A stretch of DNA of 64,000 nt from a virus (taxonomy: Duplodnaviria; Caudoviricetes): positions 1 to 64,000 of IMG/VR virus record IMGVR_UViG_3300015050_000842; one strand, given 5' to 3'. The notes under the pieces are model-generated. The model was not told the origin of the DNA and did not search any database. It saw only the letters and a list, made by a program, of their open reading frames with translations. Shown piece after piece: positions 9,113 to 48,030 of the stretch. How positions within the stretch are numbered: position 1 is the first letter of the stretch; the number at the start of each line of letters is the position of its first letter. The position numbers were made by a program, and so were the translations under genes.

Positions 9113-9442
9113 TTACGTAGTAACAACACTATTATAGTTTGCAATTGGGTCAGGGCAATCGCAGTATATTACAAGCGTGTCCCCGTTTGCTATCCCACTC
9201 GGTATTGCACTAAAGGTTACAACCTGTACGTTTAACCCTGCTACAAATGAATTGGATGCCGTAGCGGTTACATCGGGCATAGTCGAAGCATCGTATAGGT
9301 ATTTACCTCCTGTTGTGCTATACACCTGAAAAGAACCGCTTGGGATAATGTCGAAGTTATATGCACCTGCGAAAGTTAGCGTTTTAGCTGTGGTGTCTAA
9401 CGTGGTTGATACTGCGTTCCCTGTGCCTATTAATATTTTCAT
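9113..9442 (-). CDS. Small putative structural protein
   Basis: Thr/Ala/Gly-rich beta-type sequence; first gene after a promoter-like box. Confidence 0.5.
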   Translation of the reverse strand: MKILIGTGNAVSTTLDTTAKTLTFAGAYNFDIIPSGSFQVYSTTGGKYLYDASTMPDVTATASNSFVAGLNVQVVTFSAIPSGIANGDTLVIYCDCPDPIANYNSVVTT

Positions 9443-12400: not shown

Positions 12401-15400
12401 GTATTGATTAGCGACTGTCTTTAATGCTTTCTCTTGTTGTTGTAATGCAACGAGTTCGGCATCTGTTTCAGGCTTGTTTCTAATCTTTAACTCTTTCTTC
12501 TTATCCGCTATCTCTTGCTCTAATTCAGTAATACGTTCTTTAGTTCGTTCTTTAGCTTTCTCAATTCTGTCTTTTGGAGTTTTGCTTTCACTTGCAATAA
12601 CATCACGAATATCTTGAACTGTAATATCGGGCGCAATATCTTTAACGGCATTTAGTATTTCTGATGAAATTTCATTTATCTTAGTAATTCCTAATTCGGC
12701 AAATAGCTTTGTTAGTTTAATAATATGTGGAGTAGCTACTTTTACCTGCTCTGCATAAGGGATTGAAGACATAGCACCACCACCACCTCTTGCTGACTTA
12801 ATTAGGTCTTTACGTAGCTTTTCAATCTCTGCTTTAATATCAGCCTTTACTACCTTTGAGTCACGTTTAACTTTTGGTGCTTCAATGATAATATCATCTG
12901 ATTCTTGTTCTTGTGATTCAGCTTCTTCATTAATAGCATCCATATCCGACTGAATAGCTTTCTCAACTTTTCTTCTGCCATCTAATTGCTTAGTTGTAAA
13001 GAATTGGTCTGTTACTGCTTCAATGTCGTAACCTACCCTTGCTAATTGACGTAACCTACCTAATCCTAATGCTCTTGCTACGGTACGCTGATATTTGATA
13101 GTAATATTCTGTACTAACTTCTCTTGCTTTTTAAGCGTGAGATTATCAGGGTCGTCAAGCAACTGCTTATTCAGGTCGTTCTCTAATGATAGTAGGATTA
13201 AACTTGTGTTGTCTATTCCGAGTGTGCTTGTGTTGTCACGAATGAAAGCTAACAATCCCTCTACGTATTTGTCGCCAAACTCTTGTTTTGCTTGTTCGAT
13301 AATATCTGCCCCTAATTGGAATGTATCTAATATCTTTTTTACACGATATTCTTTTTCTTGCTTAGATAACTCTCTGCCACTTTCTCTTTCTTTATTGCTT
13401 AAAGTATCTTTGAACTCATTGGAGTCTATGCTTGTGTGAGCAAGTTTAACAAACTCTGGACTTGCTTTTGCATCCGACTTAACTTCATCAAATATTGGTT
13501 CAGTTTCCTCAAAGTCACTTTCTACTTTCTTCTTACCTCCATTTGCTTCGTTCCAAGCATCCTTTACAAAGTCGTTTACATCTTCACCGATTGCTTTAGC
13601 AAAATCTTGAACAGTCTTTACTCCTGCTTCAATATAGGCTAATGCTTCTTCTAATAATGCTTTGTGATAGTTAAATAATGCTTTAGCTTTTTCTTTAGGG
13701 TCTTGTGCTATTCCTAAGTTTCTGTTTAGAGCATCAAGTTTTGCTTTTGCTTCTTTTCTATTTTGAGCAAGTTCTTCAATCTTTGTTAGCGCCTTTTTAG
13801 GTTCTTTTTGCTTATTTTCTTCGTTTTTTGACTTTAAATCAACTTTTGATAAAGCGCCTTTCTCTGCCTTTAAAGCATCAGCTTCGGCACTAAACCGTTC
13901 TCTAATCTTTTCTACTGCATTGGGATTAGCTTTTTCATTTTTAGCTTGTTCGTAGATACCTGCTTCTTTCAAAGCATCGTGGAATTTAGCCATGACCTTA
14001 CGTTGGTCTTTCTCTATCTCTGCTAAAGTTCGAGTTGACTTTTTGGTTTCGGTTTTTGTGCCTTTTGTATCTTTTTGATTTGATACATTCTCTTGGCTTT
14101 CTGTGCTTGTGTTAATTTCATCTTCTGTAAAGTTAAGTTCTTGATTTTTTTCTTCTTCGGATAGGTTATTAAACCACTCGTCATACTCTTTGGCTAACTC
14201 TGCTTCATTGGCGGTTATTTCAGCTATATCCTCGCTTGTAAGGTCGTTATTATACGCATCTGATATAGGAACAAACATTCTGTTATTAATTGCACCTGAA
14301 CCTTGTGTGAAGTTATATCCACCTTCCTCTTTAGCTTTGTTAATAGCTTTAATAAGTCTACGTGCAGGGGCGGTATCTTTTCCTGCTAATATATCTTTCT
14401 GACCTTTACGAATATCAGTCCATTCCATACCCAAATCAGGTCGTGGACTAAATCTATCACCATCCCAAGTAATAGCACCTTTCTCTATTTCCGACTTAGC
14501 AAATTCTACTTCTTGCTTCTCCCTGCTTTCTGTAACGATATTGCTATTGCTTGGCGTTGTTTGGCTTTCTGCGACATTACTTTCTTGGTATTGCCTATCT
14601 TCTTGCTTCCCTTGTTGCTGTTCAGTAACTCCCTCACGTTCTGTGATATTACTTTGTTCGATGTTCCCTTGATTAACGGCATTTTCTTGTTCGTTTAAAA
14701 ATTTATTAATTTTCTGTTCACTCCATTCGTCAGAAGTCATATCAATAGTAGTGACATCTGCTTTTATTTTAGTGTTTCCCTTAACCGCTTCGGTAGATAT
14801 TCTGTGGTGTCCGTCTAAAACAAATAGACCGTCATTAAATCTAACAAGTTTAGGATTACCGATAGTGAGTTTTCCGCCTATTCCTGACTTGTCAACCAAT
14901 TCTTGTGTTGGTGTAATTTCAGATAAGTCAACTGTTTCCTCTTTTGTATTGTCTTTATTTTCAGAAATAAAAGGTTTAAATTGTGGACTATCGACATCTG
15001 GCAAACCTACATTATTTGATTTATTTTTAAAAAACTGCCTTGTTGGATAAACGTCTTTTGCTTTTACGCCTTCCATTTTAGCAAGACCTTCTTCTGAAAA
15101 ATTTAATCTAATAGATTTTGGTTTTTCAATTTCAGATATAGTGACATCTGCTTCTTCGGTGTCAATTGTTGGTTTTTCAAGTGGGGGTATTTCTTGCGCT
15201 TTTTCTTTCGGAACTGATTGAGTTTCTAATTCGTACTGTTGCTTAGATATTTCTTCCAATTCCCCATCCTCTCCTAATTGCTTATACCACTTATCCCTTT
15301 CAGGGTCTTTTGAATACTTAAATTTTTCATCTGCCGTAGCTTCAATAATATTATCGTTAAGACTTTGTTTTTTGGCTTCAAGAATATCTATATCTTGTTG

Positions 15401-16906
15401 TGCTTGTGGTGCTAAAGACTCGTCATAAGCCTTCATTTGTTCTTGCTTAACCTTTATGGCTTCGGCAACATTATCTCTCTCTACAATGGCTTGTATAGCT
15501 TCCTTACGTTTTTTAGCACCTATATCAAAAGGTATAACTTCCGTAGCTTTAATATACTTACCTAAATTTGTTCCTATTTCATTCCACCTATCAGCATCTA
15601 AAGAACCATTATTATACCTATCAGATAATTCTTTTTTTAGTTCAGACGCTATTTCATATAATGTTTCTTTATTTGTAGCTGATGAAACTCGCTCTGCCAC
15701 CATATCATCAACTGATTTCATCCCACGTAAAGCACTCCCTGTAATGCCACCCAATACCGCACCGCCTCCAATTTCATTAATTCTATTTTTCCAAAAATCT
15801 TCTACAACCTCTTGCTCGTTAAATATGCCAAGATTTGATGTTATATTGGTTAAACCTTTTAGAATATCAGTAGATAAACCTGTTATCCCCTCTGTTCCAC
15901 CCTCAACACCTGCCGATGCAATACCTTTTAATCCTACTGATTTGAATTTATTTATTCCTTTTTTAGCTATACGACTTGCAGTTTCTTCGATAACATCTGC
16001 CGTAATCTTTCCTGTTGTTTTTGTTGCAAGTTCTTGTACTGTTTCCTTTAAAATAGCTTCCTTCACTTTTTTAGCAACAGGATTACTCTTGGTCATAAAT
16101 CCTAATGAATATCTATCGGCAATACTACTGATTGTACTATAAGCGATTCCAAAAATTTCTCTTGCATTATCTAATCCAACAGGGTCATCAGTAGTTCTGT
16201 TTCCTACTGCTTTGTCAAACTCTTTAAGACCTTGACTATAACCTTGTGCTAAGTATGATGCGCCTGCTGTTGGAATTGCAAGACCCATATCCCCTGCAAA
16301 CCTTGAAATCATTAATGGAAGTGCTTTAGCGTTTTCTTTTGTAAAAACTCCTTTAGTTAAATCAAAACCCTGTTGAACTTCTTCTTCGTATTTTTTTGAG
16401 GATGAACCTGAACGTAATTTTTCAGTAACTTGCTCTGCTTTTCCTCCAAGTACATCGGCAGTCGCTTTCATTATCGGGTTTCCGTATGGATTAGACTTGG
16501 CAATAAGTCGTGTCATTCCACCTAAAAAATCTGAACCTGAACCTATAAGTTGGTTATACATAGCACCGAGATAATTGTTATCATCTTCTACGGCTTCTGA
16601 AATAGTTTTAGGCTTTACCTTTGGCTTAACGTAGGGGGTAGGTTTAGTATCGACAGGGCTTTGGAAAGGCTCGAAGCCACGATTTGAAGTCTGTGTACCA
16701 CTCGTTGAAACGGGTGTAGTAAGTTCTTTTTTTTTTATTTTGGTTGAAAAAGTATCGAAATCACCCAAATCATATTCCGCACCAACGCCATCGTAAAATG
16801 CTTTACGCTTAGTATCATCTTGTAGCTTTACTTGAAATTCATCAAATGAACCTACATTATAATCCTTAGATACTGCATCGTATAATATTTTTACTTTATC
16901 AGGCAT
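9494..16906 (-). CDS. Giant (2470 aa) internal virion/ejection protein with a ParB/Srx-like domain
   Basis: Largest of three genes after the tail stabilisation gene; helical and charged; N-terminal LYD..S..Y.+G.FDEF repeat; VDLSEITPTQ...VLDGHHR at about 14750-14940. Confidence 0.7.
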   Translation of the reverse strand: MPDKVKILYDAVSKDYNVGSFDEFQVKLQDDTKRKAFYDGVGAEYDLGDFDTFSTKIKKKELTTPVSTSGTQTSNRGFEPFQSPVDTKPTPYVKPKVKPKTISEAVEDDNNYLGAMYNQLIGSGSDFLGGMTRLIAKSNPYGNPIMKATADVLGGKAEQVTEKLRSGSSSKKYEEEVQQGFDLTKGVFTKENAKALPLMISRFAGDMGLAIPTAGASYLAQGYSQGLKEFDKAVGNRTTDDPVGLDNAREIFGIAYSTISSIADRYSLGFMTKSNPVAKKVKEAILKETVQELATKTTGKITADVIEETASRIAKKGINKFKSVGLKGIASAGVEGGTEGITGLSTDILKGLTNITSNLGIFNEQEVVEDFWKNRINEIGGGAVLGGITGSALRGMKSVDDMVAERVSSATNKETLYEIASELKKELSDRYNNGSLDADRWNEIGTNLGKYIKATEVIPFDIGAKKRKEAIQAIVERDNVAEAIKVKQEQMKAYDESLAPQAQQDIDILEAKKQSLNDNIIEATADEKFKYSKDPERDKWYKQLGEDGELEEISKQQYELETQSVPKEKAQEIPPLEKPTIDTEEADVTISEIEKPKSIRLNFSEEGLAKMEGVKAKDVYPTRQFFKNKSNNVGLPDVDSPQFKPFISENKDNTKEETVDLSEITPTQELVDKSGIGGKLTIGNPKLVRFNDGLFVLDGHHRISTEAVKGNTKIKADVTTIDMTSDEWSEQKINKFLNEQENAVNQGNIEQSNITEREGVTEQQQGKQEDRQYQESNVAESQTTPSNSNIVTESREKQEVEFAKSEIEKGAITWDGDRFSPRPDLGMEWTDIRKGQKDILAGKDTAPARRLIKAINKAKEEGGYNFTQGSGAINNRMFVPISDAYNNDLTSEDIAEITANEAELAKEYDEWFNNLSEEEKNQELNFTEDEINTSTESQENVSNQKDTKGTKTETKKSTRTLAEIEKDQRKVMAKFHDALKEAGIYEQAKNEKANPNAVEKIRERFSAEADALKAEKGALSKVDLKSKNEENKQKEPKKALTKIEELAQNRKEAKAKLDALNRNLGIAQDPKEKAKALFNYHKALLEEALAYIEAGVKTVQDFAKAIGEDVNDFVKDAWNEANGGKKKVESDFEETEPIFDEVKSDAKASPEFVKLAHTSIDSNEFKDTLSNKERESGRELSKQEKEYRVKKILDTFQLGADIIEQAKQEFGDKYVEGLLAFIRDNTSTLGIDNTSLILLSLENDLNKQLLDDPDNLTLKKQEKLVQNITIKYQRTVARALGLGRLRQLARVGYDIEAVTDQFFTTKQLDGRRKVEKAIQSDMDAINEEAESQEQESDDIIIEAPKVKRDSKVVKADIKAEIEKLRKDLIKSARGGGGAMSSIPYAEQVKVATPHIIKLTKLFAELGITKINEISSEILNAVKDIAPDITVQDIRDVIASESKTPKDRIEKAKERTKERITELEQEIADKKKELKIRNKPETDAELVALQQQEKALKTVANQYLTQESIDRINESKEKSVVTKLENELKDLDEQISKQEKVQKERKDPLSTPQIEQLKAIRKAKIDLLNQIDPNPKEFTKTALIEAGYGREITVTTKQDKEKRQVLDWKKLAGEEGSIDNITEIVEKTLKGKGFSDVQIERMKEAFMQEIKDLRADIVSKALKELERANTPKSPTSRKSSARRLAELYDLGLFDKNPDEFKYLLNKALGLSDIGQEAFFEAERFASSLKDLYSMNDNEFFSKHFIREINLKITKLLNKVAWQEGTNTFKFIQTASEIFNLMLRTKLQSVKQFLDNQISGRQERVIQEVGRLLSGELSDKEFDALIKKYSKTIKADITKNAGLYFGEINTPFLTKSQIEDYINGLSKNRAYHYVVSVALAKSYLEGADSMNKASLTETFFRTALLKVMTDKTNPNRMTAEEASKYINEQLIGQKFEDALKESERIIDKINSEAGIEVLANNKENVYRGAMDLVKANLLSGNVVTVEMIEAAYDSAYKVAGYGLGHEANNIVSEMVNRYQAFIEERIKKAIKEKDWNKAAMYTLTATFNRNFLNPFVGGGTNWLVLGLQKQGLDVISPLRMWWGKTLNKIDLSSPDDVKRLEEYLTDDFRRKTVTRRVLIGGVASGLITLGLIASGGDDEYEEWRKRNAWFKRYESALIPQMTLMALAMNREEFAKWIADTFDKSAKYEAMPKLAKALKEFNKNNPPAREKAFGQIANVVGGNFDLPLFSIRFVRDLEGITRGISGQPSMRSDFENVGILNGFFNYGAFDYLGFRPDRTYMRSIEAVIPTKDKEIIGFLRDNGLNINSNSDEAILRDGVKTYLSIKEAKKYDKLWSEEVYKSIKTNMPKLKDLSEKQIKSFISAIEYSATQKVQKEFGFQDPELQQIEINDVKYSLDKRLIDKRNKLIKEYIRNKKGSVEFDESFKQAVKDGRVVNTPEAKNKMLMSGAKAHATKEMKELLESKTKTLQVAPD

Positions 16907-16908
16907 AT

Positions 16909-18267
16909 TTAGAATCCTTTAATTGTTTTCTTACCGCTTGTTGGTTGTGTTGTTTTCTGTGGTTGGCTTGTCGCAGGTTTGTTCGCTTGTGAAAGAACTT
17001 TTGCTTTCGCTGCCTTAAACCCTTCATCTGTTTTAACCTTTATAGGTAAGTCTGATTCATTAACTACATACTCAACACCGTTATTTAGCACAAGTGCTTT
17101 TAATTCTTGCTTACCACCTTTTGTTTTTGTTAGACCCAATCCTGCTAATGAAACTTGTCCTCCTGCACCCATTTGTTCGTTTCTACCTGTTCGTAGATTT
17201 AAGACGTTATTTAGTTGCGTAGAAATAAAGTTTTTTTCTGTTGGCTTTATAAAGTAGTCGAACTTTATTGTTTGAACAGGTCTGTCTGCATCTGAACCAT
17301 CTGCTCTTATAACTGCATTACCGTAGAATTTCTTATCAACCTCAACTTCTCCTATCGAACTATCATCTTCACTTTCAGACTTAGCTAACCTGCGTTCTGC
17401 CAATGATAACATTCGCTTTTGATAATCGGTCATATCACGATTAGGGACAACATAGCTTTTTGAACCTTCATCCTTAACTAATGGAGCGTTTGTCACCATA
17501 TCTGTTAATGCCATTTGCATTGACTGACCTTCGTTATTATCCCAATCTAACTGTGGGTAAGATTCTTCAAGGATTGCCTTAAATCCATCGTTTCCACGAT
17601 ATAGCATTTCATACGCCCTAATTTGTGCTTCTTGTGGCACTCTTTTTATCTTAGCAAACTCGGCTACCGTTAAATCTCCTGCTTTCTTTGTTACACCCTC
17701 TACTTCATCGTACTTTCCAAACTTTAACAATTCTTCGTTTAACTTATTTATTTCAGACACAACCTTACTTTTATCGTAACCTAAAGGAATAGTGCTGTAA
17801 TCTACAATGTCGTCTTTGGAGTAGATTGGTGCTGATAATGATTTGTTGTATAATTGTTTACCTTGCTCACTAAAGAAATGTGGCTTACCTAAAACTTTAG
17901 TTCCTACCGCTAAATCTCGTTGCGTCTTAGCTTTAGAATCAAATACGTATTTTTGGGCTTTCTGTCTTTCTTTCTCTGCTTCTGCTTGTAACCTGAATCG
18001 TTCTTTCGGGTCTTTAGCTTTCATCGCTTCGTAGGTCTTATTCTTCCAACCGTCATACACTTGATAGAAACCATCCTTGTCTACTTCACGTAATCCCTCT
18101 GTGTTGAATTGAGATAACTTATCCGCTAATGCTTTCTGTTCTGCTTCACGTTTAGCTTGTTGCTGTACTACTGTACGAGCATACGTATTTACTGCGTTTT
18201 GGGTGCTATTGTAGATTTGGGCTGCACCCTGATTTATACCTCTGCTGACGTTTAATCCCTCTGCCAT
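16909..18267 (-). CDS. Internal virion/ejection protein (start probably ATG 18267, MAEGLNVSRG)
   Basis: TAATG overlap with the upstream gene; Gln/Ala/Lys-rich; position between ejection genes. Confidence 0.6.
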   Translation of the reverse strand: MAEGLNVSRGINQGAAQIYNSTQNAVNTYARTVVQQQAKREAEQKALADKLSQFNTEGLREVDKDGFYQVYDGWKNKTYEAMKAKDPKERFRLQAEAEKERQKAQKYVFDSKAKTQRDLAVGTKVLGKPHFFSEQGKQLYNKSLSAPIYSKDDIVDYSTIPLGYDKSKVVSEINKLNEELLKFGKYDEVEGVTKKAGDLTVAEFAKIKRVPQEAQIRAYEMLYRGNDGFKAILEESYPQLDWDNNEGQSMQMALTDMVTNAPLVKDEGSKSYVVPNRDMTDYQKRMLSLAERRLAKSESEDDSSIGEVEVDKKFYGNAVIRADGSDADRPVQTIKFDYFIKPTEKNFISTQLNNVLNLRTGRNEQMGAGGQVSLAGLGLTKTKGGKQELKALVLNNGVEYVVNESDLPIKVKTDEGFKAAKAKVLSQANKPATSQPQKTTQPTSGKKTIKGF

Positions 18268-19043
18268 TATCTTCTGTAAGGTATTCCTCTCCAATAATTA
18301 GGTTGCATCTGACCCATTCCTGTAATCTTGTTGTAATTACTCATACCTCCGAACCCGCTAAATGGATAGCCACTCATAGGTTGTGTTGATTGTGGATTAG
18401 GCATACCGAATTGAGATAGGTATTGTTGTGAGTTGAAAGGCGACTGTGAAACTCCTGTTGCCATTTGTCCCTGACTATCACCTGACATTTTACCACCGTT
18501 AAGCATAGCCATTTGACCAATTTGAGATAGTTCGCTTAATCCTCCCATTACGTTCTGACGACCTGCACCTTGTAACGCTGCTGCTGCATCAGCTTGTTCG
18601 CCAAATTTTTGGAATTTATCCCATTGTTGTTTCGCTAACTGTTGCTGACCGATTTGACTTCTGTAACCCATAGCTGACCTTTGATTAGCCATTCTTGCAT
18701 TTGCATCTGCTACGTCTAATCCTAAAGTTGCATCGTTTCCTGCTCTTACAATTCCTGCTAAACCTCTTGGATTGCCCATTCTGCCAAACTGACGTAATGC
18801 CGATGCTTGGTTTCTTTGGAAGTTTTGCTGTGCTTGGTTATATTGCTGTTGTGGCAGACCAATCTTTGCCATATTCTCGGCAATAGCTAAGTTCTGATGA
18901 AACTCTTTGGGTATTTCGTAGGTAGGTCTTATGTTTTGCTTGGCAAGTTTATTCCCTTTTGCGCCTTGGAAAATGCCTTGAATGCCTTTCACAACTGACG
19001 GTATCGCTGCTATACCTGCTGATATTAATTGCGGTGGAATCAT
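18267..19043 (-). CDS. Small internal virion/ejection protein
   Basis: Gly/Ala/Gln/Met-rich with an amphipathic N-terminus, typical of podovirus pilot/ejection proteins. Confidence 0.65.
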   Translation of the reverse strand: MIPPQLISAGIAAIPSVVKGIQGIFQGAKGNKLAKQNIRPTYEIPKEFHQNLAIAENMAKIGLPQQQYNQAQQNFQRNQASALRQFGRMGNPRGLAGIVRAGNDATLGLDVADANARMANQRSAMGYRSQIGQQQLAKQQWDKFQKFGEQADAAAALQGAGRQNVMGGLSELSQIGQMAMLNGGKMSGDSQGQMATGVSQSPFNSQQYLSQFGMPNPQSTQPMSGYPFSGFGGMSNYNKITGMGQMQPNYWRGIPYRR

Positions 19044-19061
19044 AATGCTATTCTTTTAAAA

Positions 19062-19069
19062 CAAATGTA
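19062..19069 (-). promoter_or_regulatory. Bacteroidota -7 promoter TACATTTG
   Basis: Exact TAnnTTTG 18 nt upstream of the ATG at 19043. Confidence 0.6.
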
Positions 19070-19083
19070 ACGATATTTACAAC

Positions 19084-19329
19084 TTATTTTTTACCTATTG
19101 ATTGTAACGCTCTGCCACGTTCATCTTCAATCTCTTTTTGTAACTCTACACACCTTACTACAAACAGTAGAAACGGTATCGGGAAACGTGCTATTCTCTC
19201 ATACAACTCAAAAAGTGGTGTCCGTGAGTCGTATAACCTGATACAAGCATCTAAAGTATTCATGTTTATCTTACTTATTGCTTTGTTCTTTTTACACAAA
19301 TCTGCTATGTACTGCCTGTGGTGGTTCAC
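19084..19329 (-). CDS. Hypothetical protein
   Basis: Packed ORF. Confidence 0.55.
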   Translation of the reverse strand: MNHHRQYIADLCKKNKAISKINMNTLDACIRLYDSRTPLFELYERIARFPIPFLLFVVRCVELQKEIEDERGRALQSIGKK

Positions 19330-19332
19330 TTT

Positions 19333-20280
19333 TTACCCTCTTACACCTATAAAACTCTTTTGTGAATTAACTGCAACTGAAAATAACCTCAACTTCGTAG
19401 ACTCCGTAGTAATAATCTCTACTAATATCCAATTGCCCTTTAATACATCACCGTTCACTATTCCACCGACACTATTTATATCTCGCATAAATGAAGCTGA
19501 ATACACGCCCTCTACGCTATTGATTGTTACTGTTGTGACTCCGTCATCCAATGTAGATTTTGTGAAGTCCTCGGCTATTAAATCGCTTACCTGACCTAAA
19601 CTTGTTTCTACTCCTTCCTCTGTGGTTATCATTAGCATATTACTCTGTATCGACATACTCTCAAACGTGCTTACAAAAGTGACGTTCTGATTGAAAGGCA
19701 TATTGATAATCGTATTATACTGCACTCCGTAGAAATTATTACGACTAGCTGAATTATTTTCGTGTAAGTATAACTGTCCCTCTTTAAACGTATAAAGGTT
19801 GATAAACAGTCCAAATCCGCAGTCAGGGTTGTAGGTATAGAATGAACTCCACTTATTGTTTTTCTCGCTATAAACGATATTGTTACGCTGTTTAGCAGTA
19901 GTAACCGTTGCGGTGTTTTTTATGTTGAAGATTGAAACTACGCAGTCCGCAGTAGAATAGAACCGTAGTCGTGGACTTGACCCTGCACAAAGTAAAGTTT
20001 CCTGAAAGAATCCTGTGGTTATGCGTTGCGTTCCTGCCGTTGTACCCATAAATGCCTGTAAGTATAATACCCCTGCACTTCCTGTGATACTTGTTATCGA
20101 ATACGTTATCTCGTAGGTCTGTCCTGCTTCAATCGTATAACCGTTTAAGTAGATACTCCCTGCATTACACGCTTCGTGAGTGGCAATATTATCAGCAAAA
20201 GACCAACCTGTTGTAACAGACTGTGCTACTAAATCAATATCTATTGGCGTATTTTCAAGCGTGGTGAAACTCATACCCAA
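19333..20280 (-). CDS. C-terminal half of the crAss-like tail stabilisation (muzzle) protein, with its own N-terminal beta-sandwich domain
   Basis: IVYSEKNNKWSSFYTYNPD...YTFKEGQLYLHEN...RNNFYG matches the conserved C-terminus of this family. Confidence 0.7.
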   Translation of the reverse strand: MGMSFTTLENTPIDIDLVAQSVTTGWSFADNIATHEACNAGSIYLNGYTIEAGQTYEITYSITSITGSAGVLYLQAFMGTTAGTQRITTGFFQETLLCAGSSPRLRFYSTADCVVSIFNIKNTATVTTAKQRNNIVYSEKNNKWSSFYTYNPDCGFGLFINLYTFKEGQLYLHENNSASRNNFYGVQYNTIINMPFNQNVTFVSTFESMSIQSNMLMITTEEGVETSLGQVSDLIAEDFTKSTLDDGVTTVTINSVEGVYSASFMRDINSVGGIVNGDVLKGNWILVEIITTESTKLRLFSVAVNSQKSFIGVRG

Positions 20281-20286
20281 AGATAG

Positions 20287-21075
20287 TTACATTTTAAAAT
20301 ACTTTTTATAGTAGGTGTAGTTCAGTTTATTGACGTTCTGCATCAGAAAAACAATGTACGGGTTGTATAGTCTTTCAAGTTCAAAGTGATTAATCGGTGT
20401 TAATCTCTCCTTTGCGTAATCCGTAGATTTCTCTTTATGGTTTTCAAAGTTATTAGGGTTGTCTATATCTCCGCTTTGTTTATGTCCTGCAATCTCTTGT
20501 GGGTCTGACCAATTAAAACAGTAACTTGGAACGTAGTTTTTGTTATGTTCATCTAACTCTCCCTCATCTCTTAACTTAGAATACCAACTTAATCCCTCAT
20601 ATCCTGTTAGGTCTGTTCTGAATCCTATTTCTCTTATCCTATCCATTTTAACAATAACACTTGCTTCCATTGTGTTACGTGATAACTCTATTCCGTTGGC
20701 ACTTGCAAATAATGAGTATTCAGGTTTCCACGCATCTTTGCCTGTTTCTTGAATCTCTTTGACTGCTTGTTCAATATGCCACTTGAAATACAAATCGTCA
20801 TCGTCTCCGAGCATGAAATAATCCCCTGTGGCGTGAGTTATAGCATCTGTAAGTATTTCCCCTCTGTTCTTATAATCTTCGTTTGTAGCGTAGTATTTGG
20901 CGTTATTCACTACAATTATAGAGTCATCCTTGAATCCTAACTCAATCGGGTGTTCGGTATCGGTATTAAAGATGATTAGTTCCTTATTTTGGTAGGACTG
21001 TGCCTGATACATGGCTACTATTCTACGTACGCAGTAGAATCTTCTATACGTAGTACAAACGAAGCTGACTTTCAT
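20287..21075 (-). CDS. Glycosyltransferase family 2
   Basis: VSFVCTTYRR...QSYQNKELIIFN...YFMLGDDDDLY (GT-A fold with DxD). Confidence 0.85.
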   Translation of the reverse strand: MKVSFVCTTYRRFYCVRRIVAMYQAQSYQNKELIIFNTDTEHPIELGFKDDSIIVVNNAKYYATNEDYKNRGEILTDAITHATGDYFMLGDDDDLYFKWHIEQAVKEIQETGKDAWKPEYSLFASANGIELSRNTMEASVIVKMDRIREIGFRTDLTGYEGLSWYSKLRDEGELDEHNKNYVPSYCFNWSDPQEIAGHKQSGDIDNPNNFENHKEKSTDYAKERLTPINHFELERLYNPYIVFLMQNVNKLNYTYYKKYFKM

Positions 21076-21684
21076 CTAAATAAATTTATTTGTTTCATTA
21101 CCCCAAGAATACCAACCATTTGAATTTTGACGAGCAAATAATTCTAATTTAATTGCATCAGGGTATAGTTCTTCAATTCTTGACCTTGCATCATTTGGTT
21201 TTCTACTATGCTCTTTGCGTTCTGCTTCAATCAACTGCCTTACATTGTTTGATTTCTTAAAATCTTTCATACTTCCTTTTATGCCAAGCAAACATATTTC
21301 AGTTGATTTTAGAGTATGTGGTGCAAAATTTAAAACTGTTTTACCTGTACTTGTTTTTTTAAGCCAAACAAAAGCAATAGTTTTATACTTAAATCCCCAT
21401 GATTCCATTACTTCAATACCATCTTTTAAGTGACTATCAGTAACCCACATAAAACAAGCACAATTTTTATCAGTAATTTCTTTTACAGGTAGTTCTTTTA
21501 TTTGGTCAATAGTCATTGTAGCATAAATACGTTCAATAGTCCTAAATCTATTTTCTCGTTTATCACTACCTTTTTTTTTATCTCCGTATAACTCCTTACT
21601 TCCATATTGCCAAGCAGGGTCAGCATAAATAACATTGTATTTTCTACCCTTGCAAAACATTAATAAATTATCCGAATCTTCCAT
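21076..21684 (-). CDS. MT-A70 family N6-adenine methyltransferase
   Basis: YNVIYADPAW, FMWVTDSHL..GIEVMESWGFKYKT, EHSRKP, KLELFAR. Confidence 0.9.
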   Translation of the reverse strand: MEDSDNLLMFCKGRKYNVIYADPAWQYGSKELYGDKKKGSDKRENRFRTIERIYATMTIDQIKELPVKEITDKNCACFMWVTDSHLKDGIEVMESWGFKYKTIAFVWLKKTSTGKTVLNFAPHTLKSTEICLLGIKGSMKDFKKSNNVRQLIEAERKEHSRKPNDARSRIEELYPDAIKLELFARQNSNGWYSWGNETNKFI

Positions 21685-21685
21685 T

Positions 21686-22276
21686 TTACCTAAATAATAA
21701 TACTTGGCTATCCATAAAATACAATACTCTGAATCCGTTTTTAATCAGATAAGGTATGCTTAACTTTCCTTTACCGTTCCACTCATCATCAAAAACATCG
21801 TCAATAAGCACAAAACAGTTATCATTTAACTTATTCCAAACTGCCTTTAGTTCGTTCAACTGATGTTCGTGGCATTTACGTACATTTTCTTCATCACCAC
21901 AGTAATCAAAGCTATCTAAGAACAGAAAGTCTATTGGTCTGTGAAAGTTTTTAAGAAACTCGATGCTATCTTGCTTTTTGTAGGTTACGTATTGACTTTC
22001 AGGAACGACTTCTTTGGCTTTAGATAAATGATTGTCGTCTATATCCACTACGTACACACTTGAATTGGTTAGTTTAGCATACCACTCCCAATTTAATGTA
22101 CTCCAACCATCACCGAATCTGCTTTCCTCTGTTGTGTTTCGGATGCAACCCGTTTCAACAATGACTATTGGTCGGCTATACGTGGCTAATAATAGGTTTA
22201 ATACGTTAGTAAAGGACTTATGACGACCTGTTATCGGTCTATCAGAACTGATTTCTTGCCAACTTCCTGAATCCAT
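21686..22276 (-). CDS. Class I SAM-dependent methyltransferase (Methyltransf_24-like); start uncertain
   Basis: IVETGC...VYVVDID...DSIEFL...IDFLFLDS...VLIDD. Confidence 0.8.
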   Translation of the reverse strand: MDSGSWQEISSDRPITGRHKSFTNVLNLLLATYSRPIVIVETGCIRNTTEESRFGDGWSTLNWEWYAKLTNSSVYVVDIDDNHLSKAKEVVPESQYVTYKKQDSIEFLKNFHRPIDFLFLDSFDYCGDEENVRKCHEHQLNELKAVWNKLNDNCFVLIDDVFDDEWNGKGKLSIPYLIKNGFRVLYFMDSQVLLFR

Positions 22277-23169
22277 TGATAGTATTTTTTTGATGCTGTT
22301 TCCGCTTTGATATGTAAAGGTACATTATATGGTAGACAATTCATATAGTCGCACTTATAAAATAATTCACTTTTATTATCAACTACTCCTGCGTTGTGAA
22401 AAATGTTGTACTGATTATACACTTCCTCACTACTTGTACCCCAACTGAAATCAAAATTTTCATGTACCACGGTTTCATATCCACGTTTCCAACCGTTCCA
22501 TAATACCGAAAACATATCGCTACACCAAATTTGCAATTCGTGATAATCGGGCTTTTCTTTTTTGATTTCGTTGTTTAAGTCCGTAATTTCTTTGAACAAT
22601 CGCTCTGAATCTCTTTCACATTCAGCCCAATAATCAGCATCTATTCCTTTCATTAGATACTGCGCCCCGATACAGTTTAATTCATTCGATATAACGAGTT
22701 CTTTGTCTATTCCGACAATATCACACATCGCATCCAATATCTGCTCTCCTTTGCCTCGTATGTACTCCGCAGAGATATAGAATCGTGTGTTTGAACCGTA
22801 CCACTTATTATCAGTCAGCATTTCTTCCGTAATCCAACTTGTAGGTGGCTTAGTAAATATTATATCGCAGTCGTGATAGAAAATAACCTCGTCTTTTAAT
22901 TCAGGGAATCTCTGCCAATGTTGCTTTAAGATATTTGGTCTTATTGAGGAAATGTAGTGTCGTGTTTCTCTCGTATCGTTGTAGAACAAGAATCGTGCAG
23001 GGTAGTGATTAGCTAACTTACTCCACGTATTAGGAATTACACCGTTCTCTTTATAGCATACAATGTCTATTTGATTAGGGTTAATACCCATAGCCATGAA
23101 ATTTTGTAGCATTACTTCCGTTTGCCAAACATAGTAAGCAGTACAAGGTTGTGCAGAAACAAATCTCAT
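22231..23169 (-). CDS. GT96/GT95-like (SERGT1/HPAT-type) protein O-glycosyltransferase
   Basis: MRFVSAQPCTAYYVWQT..F...G and YISSIRP....HW...IFYHDCDIIFTKP parallel the plant SERGT1 (C..YFDWQT; INKP; D.DMI) and HPAT (NRP; DH.F..P) motifs. ATG at 23169 lies 1 nt after the upstream stop. Confidence 0.65.
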   Translation of the reverse strand: MRFVSAQPCTAYYVWQTEVMLQNFMAMGINPNQIDIVCYKENGVIPNTWSKLANHYPARFLFYNDTRETRHYISSIRPNILKQHWQRFPELKDEVIFYHDCDIIFTKPPTSWITEEMLTDNKWYGSNTRFYISAEYIRGKGEQILDAMCDIVGIDKELVISNELNCIGAQYLMKGIDADYWAECERDSERLFKEITDLNNEIKKEKPDYHELQIWCSDMFSVLWNGWKRGYETVVHENFDFSWGTSSEEVYNQYNIFHNAGVVDNKSELFYKCDYMNCLPYNVPLHIKAETASKKYYQWIQEVGKKSVLIDR

Positions 23170-23170
23170 A

Positions 23171-26100
23171 TTACATGAACGATGTCGTTGTTGTACTTGT
23201 GGTTGTCGGTGTTGAAGCACAAACTACAATATTGGTTACATTTCCATTCACATCCACGTTTCCTACATATCTGATTGCTAAATCATCAGCCGTACTGAAA
23301 CTTACAAAGTCACCGTCATTTGGAACTCCTGTCCACTCTCCAACTAATATTGAAGTGTTGAAGAATTGTGTTACTGTCATAGGGTCGTTAGACGCTGCGT
23401 AAACAGTTATCGGTTGTCCGTAAAGCGGAGTCATAACAGCACACGCATCAGGTCTACTTGCAGGGTCACTTCCATACAGTCTGTACTCTCTCGGTGCAGC
23501 AGTAGTGGTAGTTGTTGTTGTCGTAGTCGTTGTGGTCGGCTCTGGCTCGGTTGTCGTAGTCGTAGTCGGTGCTGCGGTTGTGGTCGTAGTTGTAGGTGCA
23601 ATTGTTGTTGTAGTCGTAGGCGCAACCGTTGTAGTGGTTGTGGTTGTTGGTGCAATCGTAGTCGTTGTAGTCGGTGCGATTGTGGTTGTAGTTGTTGTAC
23701 TTGTAGTAGTGGTTGTAGTTGTGGTAGCAACCGCAGTAGTCACAGTATAAGTATCAGATACGCAACCAACAGTTAATGTAGTCGATACAGCAGTACTTGG
23801 ACTTGCAGATGCAGTAACCCTTACCTCTACATAATCATTATTTACAACTGTTCCTGCAACACTTGTCCAACTGCCTGTTCCGTTCACACGATATTCACCA
23901 CCGCCTCCTGAAATACTAATTGCAGTCGGAATGTCAATGTCGATAATCAATACTTGATTGGAAGTATAAACCTCTCCCCATTGTGCATCAGTAACGTCTA
24001 AGAAGTTAATTACGTTAGGGCAGTCATCCCCTGCAACAATAGTTAAACAAACTCTTTTTGTCGTTAAAACACCACCACTCGGAGTAAAGCTAAACGTGAA
24101 GTTGTCTGTGCCTGTTTCCCCTGTATTTGGAGTGTAGGTCGCAATCCCTGTTCCTGTATTGTACGTAGCAACCCCCTTTGTTCCTTGCGCCGTTAAGCTA
24201 ATATCAGCAGGCGGAATAACATACGTATCGTCTAACTGCCAATTCAATTCATTGAACGGAGTATCAAACAGTATATCACCCTCTGTTTCGGTAGTTAATA
24301 GATACTCGTTGTAGAAAATATCGTAGTAGCCGATAATCTTTTTCCCTGCCTCATAAGCCTCTTGAAGCACTCTCTTGAAGTATTTGCTGTTCTTGCCTGA
24401 AATCGTGTCTACACCGTCTAATCCTGCCCGTATAGGCTCACTTCTGAAAGGGTCAACAAAGTAAATGTTGTTATTCCACTCTGCATAGCTTTCTTTGGCG
24501 TTACCCATTCCGATATTCTTACCGTTGTACCGTACACTATTGAATATTTGAGTGCTTAACGCATATTGTTCTGCCGAAGATTGGTCTTCCACGATTGTTT
24601 GGAATACAGGAACATAACCTACCTTTAACTCCTGCAACACCACTAAGACGTTGTTTCTTTGGCGTATCTTTCTAATCCAACCGTAATTGGATGAAGTTTC
24701 TCCGTCACCATCACCATAAATACTTTCAGGATAAAATCGTGTCAATCCATTTACCAATGAATCACGTTGGAATACCTCTGAATATCTGATACTCGCTTTA
24801 CGTTCTATTCTCCCTCTCTCATCGTTGTACGTTCTTGGCTTTCCATAAGAAGCATAAGCACTTGCATAGAAGTCGCTAAAGTTAAAGTCCTCAACAACTA
24901 AGCTATCCAACTGATTCAGGTCAACACCGTTTGCCATTTCACGGCTTTTCATGTACACATCACCTGCACGAATATCTCCCGAAGTAACGGTATGTACTCC
25001 GTTAGTTATTGGATAGGAAATGCCTACCTCATACATTAACTGTTCGGTGTACTCTGTTGTGCCACTAACTGTTTCTGTTCTCTGTTTAGGCGTGTAAATC
25101 TCTAATAATACGTTATTGTTCTCTAATGTAGCCTGTGATACACCTGACGGAATATTGACCTTTAGAATGTAGTCGATTATTGTCGGGTCTACCGTGTCAA
25201 TAACAATCTCAAAATCCACAACCTCCACATCAATCTTATCCAACCATACTTTCGGTGAAGTGTTATCCGCTAATATGTAATACACAAACGTACACCTATC
25301 TCCTGCTGAATATTCATAACTCAACACGCTTGACGGATAGGCTTCGTTGAATTTCTTTAACGGATTGATGTTAAACGCAAAATAAGTTGAAGTGGTAAGT
25401 GCTGCGTCTAAAGTCCCCTGAACCCACAATGTCGTTTGATGCGTGTTGTTTAACGATAATCCCCAACCGTAATACGCTGCGTCAGCAGGTGGGTCGTGGT
25501 ATATCTCCCAATGAATCATGGATGCTAAACCCTGTATTTGAGAATACGAAGGAGTTTTTACCACATAGTTTTCATCAGTACAAATAGGGAAGTATCTACC
25601 CCACTTATCCTTATACCACAAAAATGTCTGATAGCTTGAATTGGATTTTAATGCTGACCTTGATATTGATGCACCTGTTCCTGCCAAAGCTAAGTCAACA
25701 TTGACTAATAATGCTTTCTCTGTTCCACCGTCAGGGGTTTCGCTACTTCTTCTTGTAGTGAACTGTAAAACCCAATAGAGTGAATCGAATAAATACACCG
25801 TGGTAGGATAAGGCATTGTCGCAGCGAAAGCACGTACCGCAGCCTCCGTATCTCCGTCTTGTCCTGCCGTAACAGTATAAGTCATTGTTTCGTAAACAAC
25901 ATCGGCTAAATTGGAGGTTACTATCGTGAACTCATCACCTGTCTGTGCTGTCCCTGCATAGTAAATTCTTACCTTACGATACGATGTACCGCTTACTCTT
26001 TCTTGTTGCCAATTCTCTACTCGTAATGCTACCGTAGGGTCAGGTGGAACAACGGCTATGTCAGGGTTGTAATTCACTACCTGAACTAACACATCTGTTT

Positions 26101-27160
26101 CAGGTCTGTCATACCCCTCTGTAATTCCGCCTAATGCTAACTGATTGCCATTAATATTCTCTAAAGTTTCACACTTTAAAGGAACGTGGTCGTAATCTAA
26201 GTCGGTTTCTAAGGGGTCGACATTGCTATATAGTCCGTCATTATAGAAACAGAAATAGTACGTATTCGTAGTCGGGTCATACGCCTCTCTAATCTCTGCA
26301 TCTAAATCTATTGCAGTATCAGTAATTGTTAATATGTAATCCCTGTCAACGGTTAGTATATCAAAGAAGTCAAGTGTTCCGATTCGTGCTACTGCCTTTA
26401 TTGTTTGCACTCGGTCTGTGCCTATATCCAATCCTACTATCAATGTATTGTTTGATGTTACGCTTGTTCCAACGGAAGGAGTAGATTCGTTTGTCGGAAC
26501 TTCTCGCTTACTCATTATAGAATATACGCTGTACTCATTGTCTAAGTAGACGTACTGATACATGAATTGGAATAGGCTACCTTTTAATAGGTTTACAGAC
26601 CTTGTATCGTCACTTCCGAACTCTACCGTAGGCACAATCATTGGTTGCGCTTTGATAATTAAAAAGTCATTTTCGGTAAGTACATCGTAACCACCTGCCT
26701 CTAATCGTGTTAGATTAGTCATACAAGGCTGATAGTTTCCGTCAGTCCACGCTAATAGGTAGTCGTTGATTAACTTTATATCGTTGACGTAGTATTCAGG
26801 TGTTAAAGGAAGTATGTTTTCGTTATCAGAGTCAGTCAAATTCTCGAATACATTGGTTTGAGTATTCGCATCGTAATCTAACTTAGCGATAACGTGATAG
26901 AGTTGCGAGTTGAAAATAAAAGAATAGGCGGTACGAGTGATTTCAAAACCTGCTGCCCCGATTGCTTTGTTTATTCCTGTCGGGAGTGTGTTTGCTATTA
27001 ATGAATTGCTTTCAGGGTTGGTTGCAAGACCTTCTTCGCCATCCTCTGTGCCATTTACCCTTAAATTATACGAATCTACAAAATCTGACTGCCCGACAAA
27101 CTCAATGGCATCGTCAAGATTAAGACCTCCGTTATTAAATATTTTAATGTTTTCAGGCAT
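23171..27160 (-). CDS. Tail stabilisation (muzzle) protein, N-terminal half, extended by Ig/cadherin-like domains and a mucin-like poly-Thr stalk
   Basis: GGLNLDD..N start; VLQELKVGY..YFVDPFR..IR..GLD..IS...GYYD..YNEYLLT core; then a Big/cadherin-like domain, a second beta domain, the Thr tract and a Cys-flanked tip domain. Confidence 0.8.
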   Translation of the reverse strand: MPENIKIFNNGGLNLDDAIEFVGQSDFVDSYNLRVNGTEDGEEGLATNPESNSLIANTLPTGINKAIGAAGFEITRTAYSFIFNSQLYHVIAKLDYDANTQTNVFENLTDSDNENILPLTPEYYVNDIKLINDYLLAWTDGNYQPCMTNLTRLEAGGYDVLTENDFLIIKAQPMIVPTVEFGSDDTRSVNLLKGSLFQFMYQYVYLDNEYSVYSIMSKREVPTNESTPSVGTSVTSNNTLIVGLDIGTDRVQTIKAVARIGTLDFFDILTVDRDYILTITDTAIDLDAEIREAYDPTTNTYYFCFYNDGLYSNVDPLETDLDYDHVPLKCETLENINGNQLALGGITEGYDRPETDVLVQVVNYNPDIAVVPPDPTVALRVENWQQERVSGTSYRKVRIYYAGTAQTGDEFTIVTSNLADVVYETMTYTVTAGQDGDTEAAVRAFAATMPYPTTVYLFDSLYWVLQFTTRRSSETPDGGTEKALLVNVDLALAGTGASISRSALKSNSSYQTFLWYKDKWGRYFPICTDENYVVKTPSYSQIQGLASMIHWEIYHDPPADAAYYGWGLSLNNTHQTTLWVQGTLDAALTTSTYFAFNINPLKKFNEAYPSSVLSYEYSAGDRCTFVYYILADNTSPKVWLDKIDVEVVDFEIVIDTVDPTIIDYILKVNIPSGVSQATLENNNVLLEIYTPKQRTETVSGTTEYTEQLMYEVGISYPITNGVHTVTSGDIRAGDVYMKSREMANGVDLNQLDSLVVEDFNFSDFYASAYASYGKPRTYNDERGRIERKASIRYSEVFQRDSLVNGLTRFYPESIYGDGDGETSSNYGWIRKIRQRNNVLVVLQELKVGYVPVFQTIVEDQSSAEQYALSTQIFNSVRYNGKNIGMGNAKESYAEWNNNIYFVDPFRSEPIRAGLDGVDTISGKNSKYFKRVLQEAYEAGKKIIGYYDIFYNEYLLTTETEGDILFDTPFNELNWQLDDTYVIPPADISLTAQGTKGVATYNTGTGIATYTPNTGETGTDNFTFSFTPSGGVLTTKRVCLTIVAGDDCPNVINFLDVTDAQWGEVYTSNQVLIIDIDIPTAISISGGGGEYRVNGTGSWTSVAGTVVNNDYVEVRVTASASPSTAVSTTLTVGCVSDTYTVTTAVATTTTTTTTSTTTTTTIAPTTTTTIAPTTTTTTTVAPTTTTTIAPTTTTTTAAPTTTTTTEPEPTTTTTTTTTTTTAAPREYRLYGSDPASRPDACAVMTPLYGQPITVYAASNDPMTVTQFFNTSILVGEWTGVPNDGDFVSFSTADDLAIRYVGNVDVNGNVTNIVVCASTPTTTSTTTTSFM
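23490..23730 (-). repeat. Mucin-like (I/V/A)AP-T5-7 repeat region
   Basis: About 75 aa of mostly Thr punctuated by AP/EP; Thr codons are mixed (ACT/ACA/ACC/ACG). Confidence 0.95.
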
Positions 27161-27165
27161 ATTGG

Positions 27166-27936
27166 TCAGGCTTTTCCAACAAGTTTTGTTCCAATTCTGG
27201 CGGCGTCAGCAAGCTCATTAAGCACAAACTGATTAATGCGCATAGCTGCTAATCTTCTCTCTCTGTAATACTCTATCTTAAACATTCTCACATCACCCTG
27301 ACTGAATTTCTTACGTAAATCAATTGCATTTTTCCACCTTAAAAAAGCCATAAATGCTTGTTCTGCCTTAGAATCAATTTCGTAGTCATCTGCGTTTTCG
27401 TCATATCCGTCACTCATATACTCCAATACTAATTGACTGTAATGGTTGTGAATATCTAAGATGATTAGTCCGTTGCTTTCATCTACCTTATACGAGCCTA
27501 CTTTTGGTGTTCCGCTATCTGCACCAAACAGATTATAAGACGTTCCGTTATAATAGTAATTGTAGTAGTAATTCGGATAGGTGTCTTGGTCAAAGAACGG
27601 TGTTAATGTATTCAATACAGGCGCACCCTCTTTCCGTAGACTTTGAGTAGTGTAAATACTGTTCCACGTAGATAGTTGGTCGTTACGTTTATAAGTAACC
27701 ACTTCACCCTTATCGTTCAATACTCCGATTTTAGAGTAGGATATATAGTCTTGTGGCAGATTAACTGTTTTGTTCGCATTTACGTCTAATACAACGGTCT
27801 TTATGTTCCCTGTTATGTCAAGGTTAAACTCCCTGCATCCCTGCACTCCGATATTGTATAAACGCCTGAATCCATGAACAGACTCATCGGCACTATTCAG
27901 GAATTGCGATACTAATTTTTTTAATGCTATCTTCAT
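27166..27936 (-). CDS. Tail ring/tubular protein
   Basis: V.LPQDYISYSKIG motif; follows the ring genes in crAss-like order. Confidence 0.65.
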   Translation of the reverse strand: MKIALKKLVSQFLNSADESVHGFRRLYNIGVQGCREFNLDITGNIKTVVLDVNANKTVNLPQDYISYSKIGVLNDKGEVVTYKRNDQLSTWNSIYTTQSLRKEGAPVLNTLTPFFDQDTYPNYYYNYYYNGTSYNLFGADSGTPKVGSYKVDESNGLIILDIHNHYSQLVLEYMSDGYDENADDYEIDSKAEQAFMAFLRWKNAIDLRKKFSQGDVRMFKIEYYRERRLAAMRINQFVLNELADAARIGTKLVGKA

Positions 27937-28580
27937 TGTACTGTCGGTAAATCTCGTGCATCATTCATTACATCTTGCGGAACATTGCCTAACTGCCTTA
28001 ATTTAGTCGTTACCCTGTCAATAATTGACGTTTCCACATTCTTAGGTACGTTCAACTCTCCGTCTAATAAACTTCCTGTGGTTGAAATAGCCCCGACCAT
28101 AGAAATATTGACTGCGGTAAACATATACTGATTGATGTTGTCGTAGTATATCCTGTTATTCTCTCTGTACGCTAAGATTGCGCCCCTTACAGGGTCTAAT
28201 AAGTCCTGCATGAACTTATCCTTGTTCTGCATTGGAATAATCTGTCTACGCCTCCCTATAATGCCTAATGGAGTAATTGACGCTATCTCTTGTCCTTTAG
28301 GTAATGAGATTGGTGTGCTTGGCATGATTGAGTACTTCTGATTTAGCGTACTGTCATACAATACGGCAACATTTGTGAACGTAGAAATAAAGGCATCATT
28401 AGCGAAAGTTGTTTCCCCTGCATTACTATTCTCAAAAGCATCCTTTCTCGCTTCAAAAGCTACTTCCTGTGCAACTAATTCTGCAATGTAACGTAATGAG
28501 AAATTTGCATCATCACTTGGTACGCCTTTGTAGTACAATGTACGTATCTGTTCACTTATCTTTTTATAGGTCGTTGCCAT
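27933..28580 (-). CDS. Tail ring/adaptor protein
   Basis: Position and size typical of crAss-like ring proteins. Confidence 0.6.
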   Translation of the reverse strand: MATTYKKISEQIRTLYYKGVPSDDANFSLRYIAELVAQEVAFEARKDAFENSNAGETTFANDAFISTFTNVAVLYDSTLNQKYSIMPSTPISLPKGQEIASITPLGIIGRRRQIIPMQNKDKFMQDLLDPVRGAILAYRENNRIYYDNINQYMFTAVNISMVGAISTTGSLLDGELNVPKNVETSIIDRVTTKLRQLGNVPQDVMNDARDLPTVQ

Positions 28581-47916: not shown

Positions 47917-48030
47917 AATAAAAAACCCCACAAATACAAAGGCTGTCCAGTCTGCCGAGGTAGGCATAAGGCAATGTAGATGCAGGGATATTTTTAAATT
48001 TCTTCATAACTGAACAGCAAAACAAATTTA
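47917..48030 (-). promoter_or_regulatory. Promoter plus structured leader (copy 3) of an HNH gene
   Basis: TAAATTTG 48023-30; 48010-18 pairs with 47942-50; 47975-87 pairs with 47926-38; then T6 and ATG. Confidence 0.65.

Follow-up and report, generated by a model that had tools for sequence, protein, structure and literature searches.

The DNA analysed here is a window of 64,000 nucleotides (nt), positions 1 to 64,000 of the virus record IMGVR_UViG_3300015050_000842 (Duplodnaviria; Caudoviricetes), which is complete with 73,893 bp and 123-bp direct terminal repeats. Between positions 19333 and 27160, six closely spaced genes on the minus strand form a cluster in which a virion protein with a threonine-rich stalk is directly followed by a predicted glycosyltransferase (GT) and further enzymes. 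The features of this candidate protein O-glycosylation system are given below in gene order, with positions referring to the window.

23171-27160, minus strand: virion protein of 1329 amino acids (aa), phrog_14478 virion structural protein (4e-47)
23492-23746, minus strand: Thr/Pro-rich stalk of this protein, residues 1139-1223, with 58 Thr and 8 Pro among 85 residues; proposed O-glycosylation acceptor
23219-23491, minus strand: tip domain beyond the stalk, about 91 aa (residues 1224-1314), with a Cys near each end
23180-23218, minus strand: second, short Thr/Ser tract at the C-terminal end, residues 1315-1327, ASTPTTTSTTTTS
22231-23169, minus strand: predicted GT8-like glycosyltransferase of the GT-A type, 312 aa (phrog_4417; no Pfam match)
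21686-22276, minus strand: class I S-adenosylmethionine (SAM) methyltransferase, 196 aa (Pfam Methyltransf_24, 2.8e-8)
21076-21684, minus strand: MT-A70 DNA N6-adenine methyltransferase, 202 aa (Pfam MT-A70, 7.5e-32; phrog_359, 7.8e-67)
20287-21075, minus strand: GT2 glycosyltransferase, 262 aa (Pfam Glycos_transf_2, 6.4e-6, above cut-off)
19333-20280, minus strand: homologue of the C-terminal part of a muzzle protein, 315 aa (BLASTP to residues 1026-1160 of Cellulophaga phage phi40:1 gp097, 3e-12)

From position 27160 down to 19333 the intergenic spacings amount to 1, -46, 1, 0 and 6 nt. The junction between the gene of the 1329-aa protein and the GT gene reads ...TTCATG TAA T ATG..., and the GT start thus lies 1 nt past the stop codon, as a first-pass annotation made by a model from the sequence had stated. 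This annotation had also named a SAM methyltransferase and a GT2 among the following genes; both are present, whereas the MT-A70 gene between them had been overlooked. The first 46 nt of the Methyltransf_24 gene are shared with the end of the GT gene, and the same gene with the same overlap is found in L088, a relative on a 64-kb metagenomic contig whose GT is 81% identical to that of the window. Since scans of 18000-28500 for consensus promoters and terminators gave hits at chance level only, the operon structure is read from the gene spacing.

The stalk contains units such as TTTTTIAP and TTTTTTAAP. Its coding DNA uses mixed ACN codons and shows imperfect 24- and 54-nt repeats with 64-87% matches; an interpretation as a slippage-prone simple repeat or clean microsatellite was rejected on account of these imperfect repeats and mixed codons. 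In the whole 73,893-bp genome, a Thr/Ser tract occurs in a single open reading frame (ORF), the 1329-aa ORF that is the upstream neighbour of the GT gene. Since it is the sole one among all ORFs of the genome, the tract is not a chance occurrence. The protein had initially been described as ending in a poly-Thr/Pro stalk of about 75 aa. The tract is real and comprises 85 residues, but it does not form the C-terminus, as the tip domain and the second tract follow. For the tip domain, a search of residues 1224-1329 against Pfam and the ESM Atlas gave no match. At the tip position of L088 a different, Cys-rich domain stands after the Thr stalk, and a Thr/Ser tract again ends the protein. The tip domain is therefore regarded as exchangeable.

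By sequence comparison, the protein that carries the stalk is homologous to the tail muzzle protein of the crAss type and is not, as initially annotated, a tail stabilisation protein. Residues 1-955 of the 1329-aa ORF align with residues 1-1072 of phi40:1 gp097 (BLASTP, 7e-15 and 6e-13), a protein of 1324 aa that was annotated as structural by tandem mass spectrometry proteomics and matches Pfam crAss_MUZ_C with 1.1e-18. The direct crAss_MUZ_C match of the 315-aa ORF (19333-20280) is weak (0.0056, below cut-off). The muzzle is a hexameric tail-tip structure of Crassvirales, and its immunoglobulin (Ig)-like and tip 'crAss' domains are thought to dock on the cell (PMC10136315). Since the 1329-aa and 315-aa ORFs jointly correspond to the single phi40:1 gp097, the muzzle gene is seen as split. 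Judged from these alignments, the stalk, the tip domain and the enzyme cassette apparently lie between a 1329-aa N-terminal and a 315-aa C-terminal piece. The same split layout is found in L088 (L088:6011-13484); phi40:1, by contrast, has one 1324-aa gene.

Similar to crAss001-type muzzle proteins, the two ORFs of the window align with one muzzle-family protein, phi40:1 gp097. They differ from this type in that the gene is split with enzyme genes between its halves, and in that an Ig-like (Big_9-like) region, the Thr stalk and the tip domain have been added to the N-terminal piece. The Ig-like region covers residues 955-1140, with a Big_9 match at 3e-4, which is under the Pfam cut-off. No Thr tract is present in the C-terminal 425 residues of phi40:1 gp097, the part that was translated, and no homologue of the 312-aa GT was found among Cellulophaga or Flavobacterium phages. 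Muzzle relatives without the GT are also without the Thr tract, which supports a glycosylation of the stalk.

The linkage of the GT family to Thr tracts was examined across IMG/VR loci. A Thr tract occurs in the directly upstream same-strand ORF at 55 of the 77 loci that have an upstream ORF, compared to 11 of the 599 other long ORFs of those loci, which corresponds to a roughly 40-fold enrichment. The co-occurrence of this GT with poly-Thr virion genes across phage genomes, which the first-pass annotation had proposed as a check, is thus found as a linkage of upstream neighbours. Downstream of the GT, Thr tracts are almost never observed. The GTs were also grouped by single-linkage clustering at 70% identity. 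Among the 29 resulting clusters, the upstream Thr tract is always present in 19 and never present in 8, whereas one cluster is mixed and one is without upstream data.

Three of the isolate phages that were checked show the same arrangement. In Enterococcus phage phiFL1A the C-terminus of the major tail protein is a poly-Thr run, and the tail gene shares its last base with the start of the GT gene. In Lacticaseibacillus phage R3.3 the protein upstream of the GT, probably a capsid protein, ends in two Thr runs, and a Thr tract is also found in the protein upstream of the GT of Chryseobacterium phage MA9V-3. Where the upstream proteins are named by PHROG, they are major tail proteins or belong to the muzzle family. 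In a reverse test, 79 viral loci were chosen solely for an (ACN)12 run; five of them carry the GT, in all five cases just downstream and on the same strand, which is far above any plausible background.

With respect to the 312-aa enzyme itself, comparison with Pfam, NCBIfam and the PDB sequences gave nothing significant, either as a single sequence or as a profile. Since these sequence searches were silent, its fold is taken from structure prediction. The AlphaFold2 model, based on a 45-sequence alignment, reached a predicted local distance difference test value (pLDDT) of 97.2 and a predicted template modelling score (pTM) of 0.93. It points to a GT-A (single Rossmann-like) fold near solved GT8 and GT24 enzymes. 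Structure matches in the PDB were glycogenin (15.0, the top match), LgtC (14.5), Skp1 alpha-galactosyltransferase (13.9), the catalytic domain of UGGT (13.6) and GlyE (13.2). In comparison to these retaining GT-A enzymes, the sequence identity of the phage protein is 6-12%, and no Pfam Glyco_transf_8 match was obtained for the window protein (E<=0.1) nor among 45 and 69 relatives. According to the model, the protein is GT8-like in fold only and not by sequence signature, and phrog_4417 would be a new sequence family within the GT8/GT24 fold class.

A DxD motif (YHDCDIIF, with D100 and D102) follows a central beta-strand. Across two alignments, of 45 and 69 diverse homologues, D102, Q170 and K272 do not vary; D100 and H258 are invariant in one of them and at least 90% conserved in the other. 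This D/Q/H/K pattern may correspond to the DxD, His and Lys residues of GT8 enzymes. In the model, globular structure sets in at residue 2, where the first beta-strand of the Rossmann fold begins, and an N-terminal hydrophobic helix is absent. Since the sequence begins directly with the first strand of the fold, the enzyme is considered soluble. The L088 GT carries an extra N-terminal extension of 87 residues (L088:10001-10260) with a zinc-ribbon-like CxxC...CxxCxC pattern, which the window enzyme does not have. Several other GT homologues are 394-399 aa long and may share an extension of this type.

The enzyme had initially been assigned to the plant-type families GT95/GT96 on the basis of SERGT1/HPAT-like motifs. 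Similar to the function proposed here, plant HPAT (GT95) and SGT1 (GT96) start the O-glycosylation of repetitive hydroxyl-rich protein segments. These plant enzymes, however, are Golgi type II membrane proteins that act on hydroxyproline or Ser (PMC8012813), whereas the phage enzyme is soluble. For GT95 a GT-A-like structure is predicted, for GT96 a novel fold (PMC8476585). A direct test of an identity with GT95/HPAT gave no support: the profile hidden Markov model of HPAT (Pfam PF23452) found nothing in the window genome at E<=10, control genomes were likewise without a match, and a type II anchor is missing. Only one of 114 phrog_4417 family members matched this profile, with E=0.23, and the motifs are accordingly without statistical support. 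The closest solved folds of the 312-aa model are GT8/GT24 enzymes, and the plant-type label is not supported. GT95/GT96 structures do not occur among the PDB matches of the model. As a weak lead, an alignment-free embedding search in the ESM Atlas led to neighbouring clusters in which about 10% of the members carry HPAT.

The enzyme genes that follow the GT were compared with fusion proteins of the same family. The metagenomic protein P0161 (779 aa) contains a Methyltransf_24 domain (N-terminal), a GT2 domain (middle) and a GT8-like domain in one chain. Since homologues of all three enzymes are fused in P0161, the Methyltransf_24, GT2 and GT8-like genes form one unit. The window Methyltransf_24 protein is 54% identical to the N-terminal domain of P0161, and the window GT2 is 43% identical to its middle domain (8e-59). 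A Thr/Ser-rich linker occurs again in the protein encoded upstream of P0161. Other family members are fused to GT2, GT6, GT25, GT32-type, Glyco_transf_7C or radical SAM/SPASM domains. A constant GT8-like domain with variable glycan-building partners fits a conserved initiator with lineage-specific extenders. The common 550-570-aa fusions P0177 and P0186 carry GT domains at their C-terminal ends, but these are not homologous to the window GT2, and a correspondence was rejected.

The MT-A70 gene adjoins the Methyltransf_24 gene (1 nt) and the GT2 gene (0 nt), and its Pfam match is full-length (111 bits, profile positions 1-172 of 172). L088 is otherwise collinear with the window, but the MT-A70 gene is absent there. 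In view of this absence from a collinear relative, MT-A70 is considered an unrelated insertion, and its membership in the glycosylation system was rejected, as it is missing from both L088 and P0161. The gene looks like a recently acquired anti-restriction gene.

Taken together, we consider it likely that the cluster encodes the phage's own system for protein O-glycosylation, which works in the cytoplasm and puts sugars on the Thr-rich stalk of the tail muzzle protein. A phage-encoded GT that is genetically coupled to virion structural genes, by which phage virion glycosylation systems are recognised, is found here. The first-pass annotation had proposed that the phage glycosylates its own mucin-like tail appendage by means of an initiating GT, a GT2 and O-methylation. 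The core of this proposal is supported by the predicted fold, the linkage to Thr tracts and the P0161 fusion, whereas its plant-type GT95/GT96 label has been replaced; the system as a whole is one that we infer.

The acceptor, the order of the enzymes, the sugars with their linkages and the biological role of the stalk can be proposed as follows. While the late genes are expressed, the first sugar would be attached in the cytoplasm to many Thr hydroxyls of the stalk by the soluble GT8-like enzyme (22231-23169). This enzyme would use a nucleotide sugar and a DxD-bound metal, and the 85-residue tract from the gene just upstream would serve as the acceptor. By analogy with GT8 enzymes, the first sugar may be alpha-linked. 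The GT2 (20287-21075) would lengthen the glycan, and O-methylation by the Methyltransf_24 enzyme (21686-22276) would cap or decorate it. Similar to mucins and serine-rich repeat adhesins, such dense O-glycans might result in a stiff, protease-resistant bottle-brush stalk. This stalk would hold the small exchangeable tip domain out from the muzzle, and the tip could mediate adhesion or the first host contact.

Several points weigh against this interpretation. The glycosylation is proposed here from genes and a predicted structure, not from glycan chemistry, and the catalytic roles of Q170, H258 and K272 are presumed by analogy with GT8 structures. About 93% of the poly-Thr viral loci (L089-L167), including several contigs of giant-virus metagenome-assembled genomes, are without a phrog_4417 GT nearby. 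Such tracts therefore do not need this GT; they are either served by other enzymes or unglycosylated linkers. In addition, the upstream ORF lacks a Thr tract in 8 of the 29 GT clusters, and the annotated gene upstream of the GT in Enterococcus phage VPE25 (capsid-like) is without one as well. Accordingly, the coupling does not hold in every case, or these genomes encode the targets at other sites. Thr-rich stretches in VPE25 (L003) are encoded by a short unannotated ORF (5725-5880) between these two genes and by the C-terminus of the major tail protein (9202-9253), possibly representing a missed extension or a frameshift product.

Finally, DNA or host glycans are conceivable targets in view of the MT-A70 gene within the cluster and of further sugar-related genes that form a second cluster at 41062-46064. 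The enzymes could modify the phage DNA, with sugar hypermodification alongside MT-A70, or the host surface polysaccharide, leading to seroconversion or superinfection exclusion, and the Thr tract could be an unglycosylated flexible linker. Phage GTs have classically been associated with the glucosylation of DNA and the modification of O-antigens (reviewed in works cited in PMC12801897). The location of a DNA methyltransferase within the cluster, the second GT2 and O-methyltransferase at 41062-46064 and the 8 of 29 GT clusters that lack the upstream tract would be in accordance with such targets. However, MT-A70 is found neither in the collinear L088 nor in the fused P0161, and in unrelated phages the GT belongs to the late structural modules, where it immediately follows genes for tail, muzzle and probable capsid proteins. 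The enrichment of Thr tracts of about 40-fold in the upstream ORF of the same strand would also be left unexplained. A DNA or host-glycan target is thus judged unlikely.

A glycosylated stalk would also be compatible with reversed roles of the enzymes. The GT2 or a host enzyme could add the first sugar, and the GT8-like enzyme would then act in extension only, like GlyE/GlyD on streptococcal serine-rich repeat proteins (SRRPs). Against this order stands the observation that the GT8-like domain is the constant partner of the Thr tracts, whereas the second enzyme varies (GT2, GT6, GT25, GT32-type, radical SAM). Phage phiFL1A, moreover, is without an annotated second GT among the neighbouring genes, and it is simpler to assume one constant initiator combined with variable extenders; we give the reversed order little credence. 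That the Thr linker, tip and GT merely travel as a mobile cassette, as a by-product of modular evolution with the GT acting, for example, as a self-glycosylating primer like glycogenin (the top structural match, which glucosylates itself) or as a virion-associated enzyme on the host envelope, is very improbable in spite of the apparent insertion of the cassette into the muzzle gene, since the tracts occur in non-homologous carriers (major tail, muzzle and probable capsid proteins), where the tract alone accompanies the GT, and the GT is without a virion-targeting feature.

The proposed glycosylation of the muzzle stalk can be compared to established systems. In SRRP glycosylation of Gram-positive bacteria and in mucin-type glycosylation, dense O-glycans on Ser/Thr repeats, added in the cytoplasm and in the Golgi, respectively, lead to extended stalks that present a binding domain. 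GlyE and other GT8 enzymes contribute to the assembly of SRRP glycans. Initiation is carried out by the GT4 pair GtfA/B in the case of SRRPs and by the GT27 ppGalNAc-transferases in the case of mucins. In contrast, a distinct GT8-like family is the constant component here, and the product is a part of the virion.

Virion glycosylation is documented in the mycobacteriophages Che8, Corndog and Myrna, where glycans shield the particles from antibodies (Freeman et al. 2023, as cited in PMC12363180). Similar to the system proposed here, phage-encoded GTs act there on the phage's own capsid or tail proteins in the cytoplasm. The differences lie in the host phylum, in the crAss-type muzzle carrier and in the long mucin-like poly-Thr stalk with a tip, and the window system is predicted from its genes. 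In a full-text literature search, with most subscription journals outside its coverage, no account was found of the phrog_4417 enzymes, of phage poly-Thr stalks that are glycosylated, or of any glycosylation among crAss-like phages. For the last of these, the initial statement that no description was known agrees with the result within this incomplete coverage.

The phrog_4417 family comprises 1762 clusters at 90% identity (E<=1e-3, word-indexed search) and, when grouped at 50% identity, at least 822 representatives. Its members are carried by isolate phages of Bacillota hosts, as well as of Arcanobacterium and Chryseobacterium, by crAss-like phages and by large metagenomic contigs. We lean slightly towards the view that these proteins are unrecognised, widespread cytoplasmic polypeptide-threonine O-glycosyltransferases of phages, which together with variable extenders would build mucin-like, bottle-brush glycoprotein stalks and linkers on capsids, tail tubes and tail tips; mucin-type decoration of virions would then be a general phage strategy beyond mycobacteriophages.

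If this is true, an enzyme family different from and much more widespread than that of the mycobacteriophages does something similar on long poly-Thr stalks. It occurs, among others, in phages that infect gut, dairy, clinical (Enterococcus, Staphylococcus) or environmental bacteria, crAss-like phages included. Such a modification would bear on phage stability, adhesion to mucus or polysaccharides, host recognition and the immune clearance of therapeutic phages. It would also bear on the reading of virion mass spectrometry data and of cryo-electron microscopy maps, where such stalks are invisible. A large unknown PHROG would gain a function, and a compact soluble enzyme for making O-glycosylated peptides would become available. 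Cultured phages that contain both genes allow an immediate test of the hypothesis.

With regard to the source phage, nearly all genes lie on the minus strand from about 55 kb down to 2.4 kb. Along the genome, the large terminase and portal genes are followed by those of several virion proteins, and next comes the stalk and glycosyltransferase region. No close relative of this region was found by megablast against phage genomes. The portal protein is about 24% identical to portals of Flavobacterium, Cellulophaga and Maribacter phages. From this kinship it follows that the source is a distant crAss-like phage, and its host probably belongs to the Bacteroidota.

The second sugar-related cluster (41062-46064, minus strand) encodes a GT2 (45261-46064), two unknown ORFs, a protein of the transaldolase/fructose-6-phosphate aldolase family (43482-44186, 2e-30) and an 807-aa multidomain protein. 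A Methyltransf_24/O-methyltransferase domain forms the C-terminal part of the latter, which also shows a weak phosphoheptose-isomerase-like PHROG match. This cluster could supply or further decorate the stalk glycan, or act on another target.

Mobile endonucleases differ between the window phage and its close relative L088. An HNH/NUMOD4 homing-endonuclease-like gene is located at 47332-47967 of the window. A NUMOD3-type gene (faint match) lies just upstream of the muzzle gene in L088 (L088:5242-6009) and is not there in the window. Downstream of the tail genes, the window contains an ORF of 2470 aa (9494-16906) without a significant Pfam match. Its counterpart in L088 exceeds 3400 aa, and the window ORF may correspond to the giant virion-packaged proteins of crAss-like phages.

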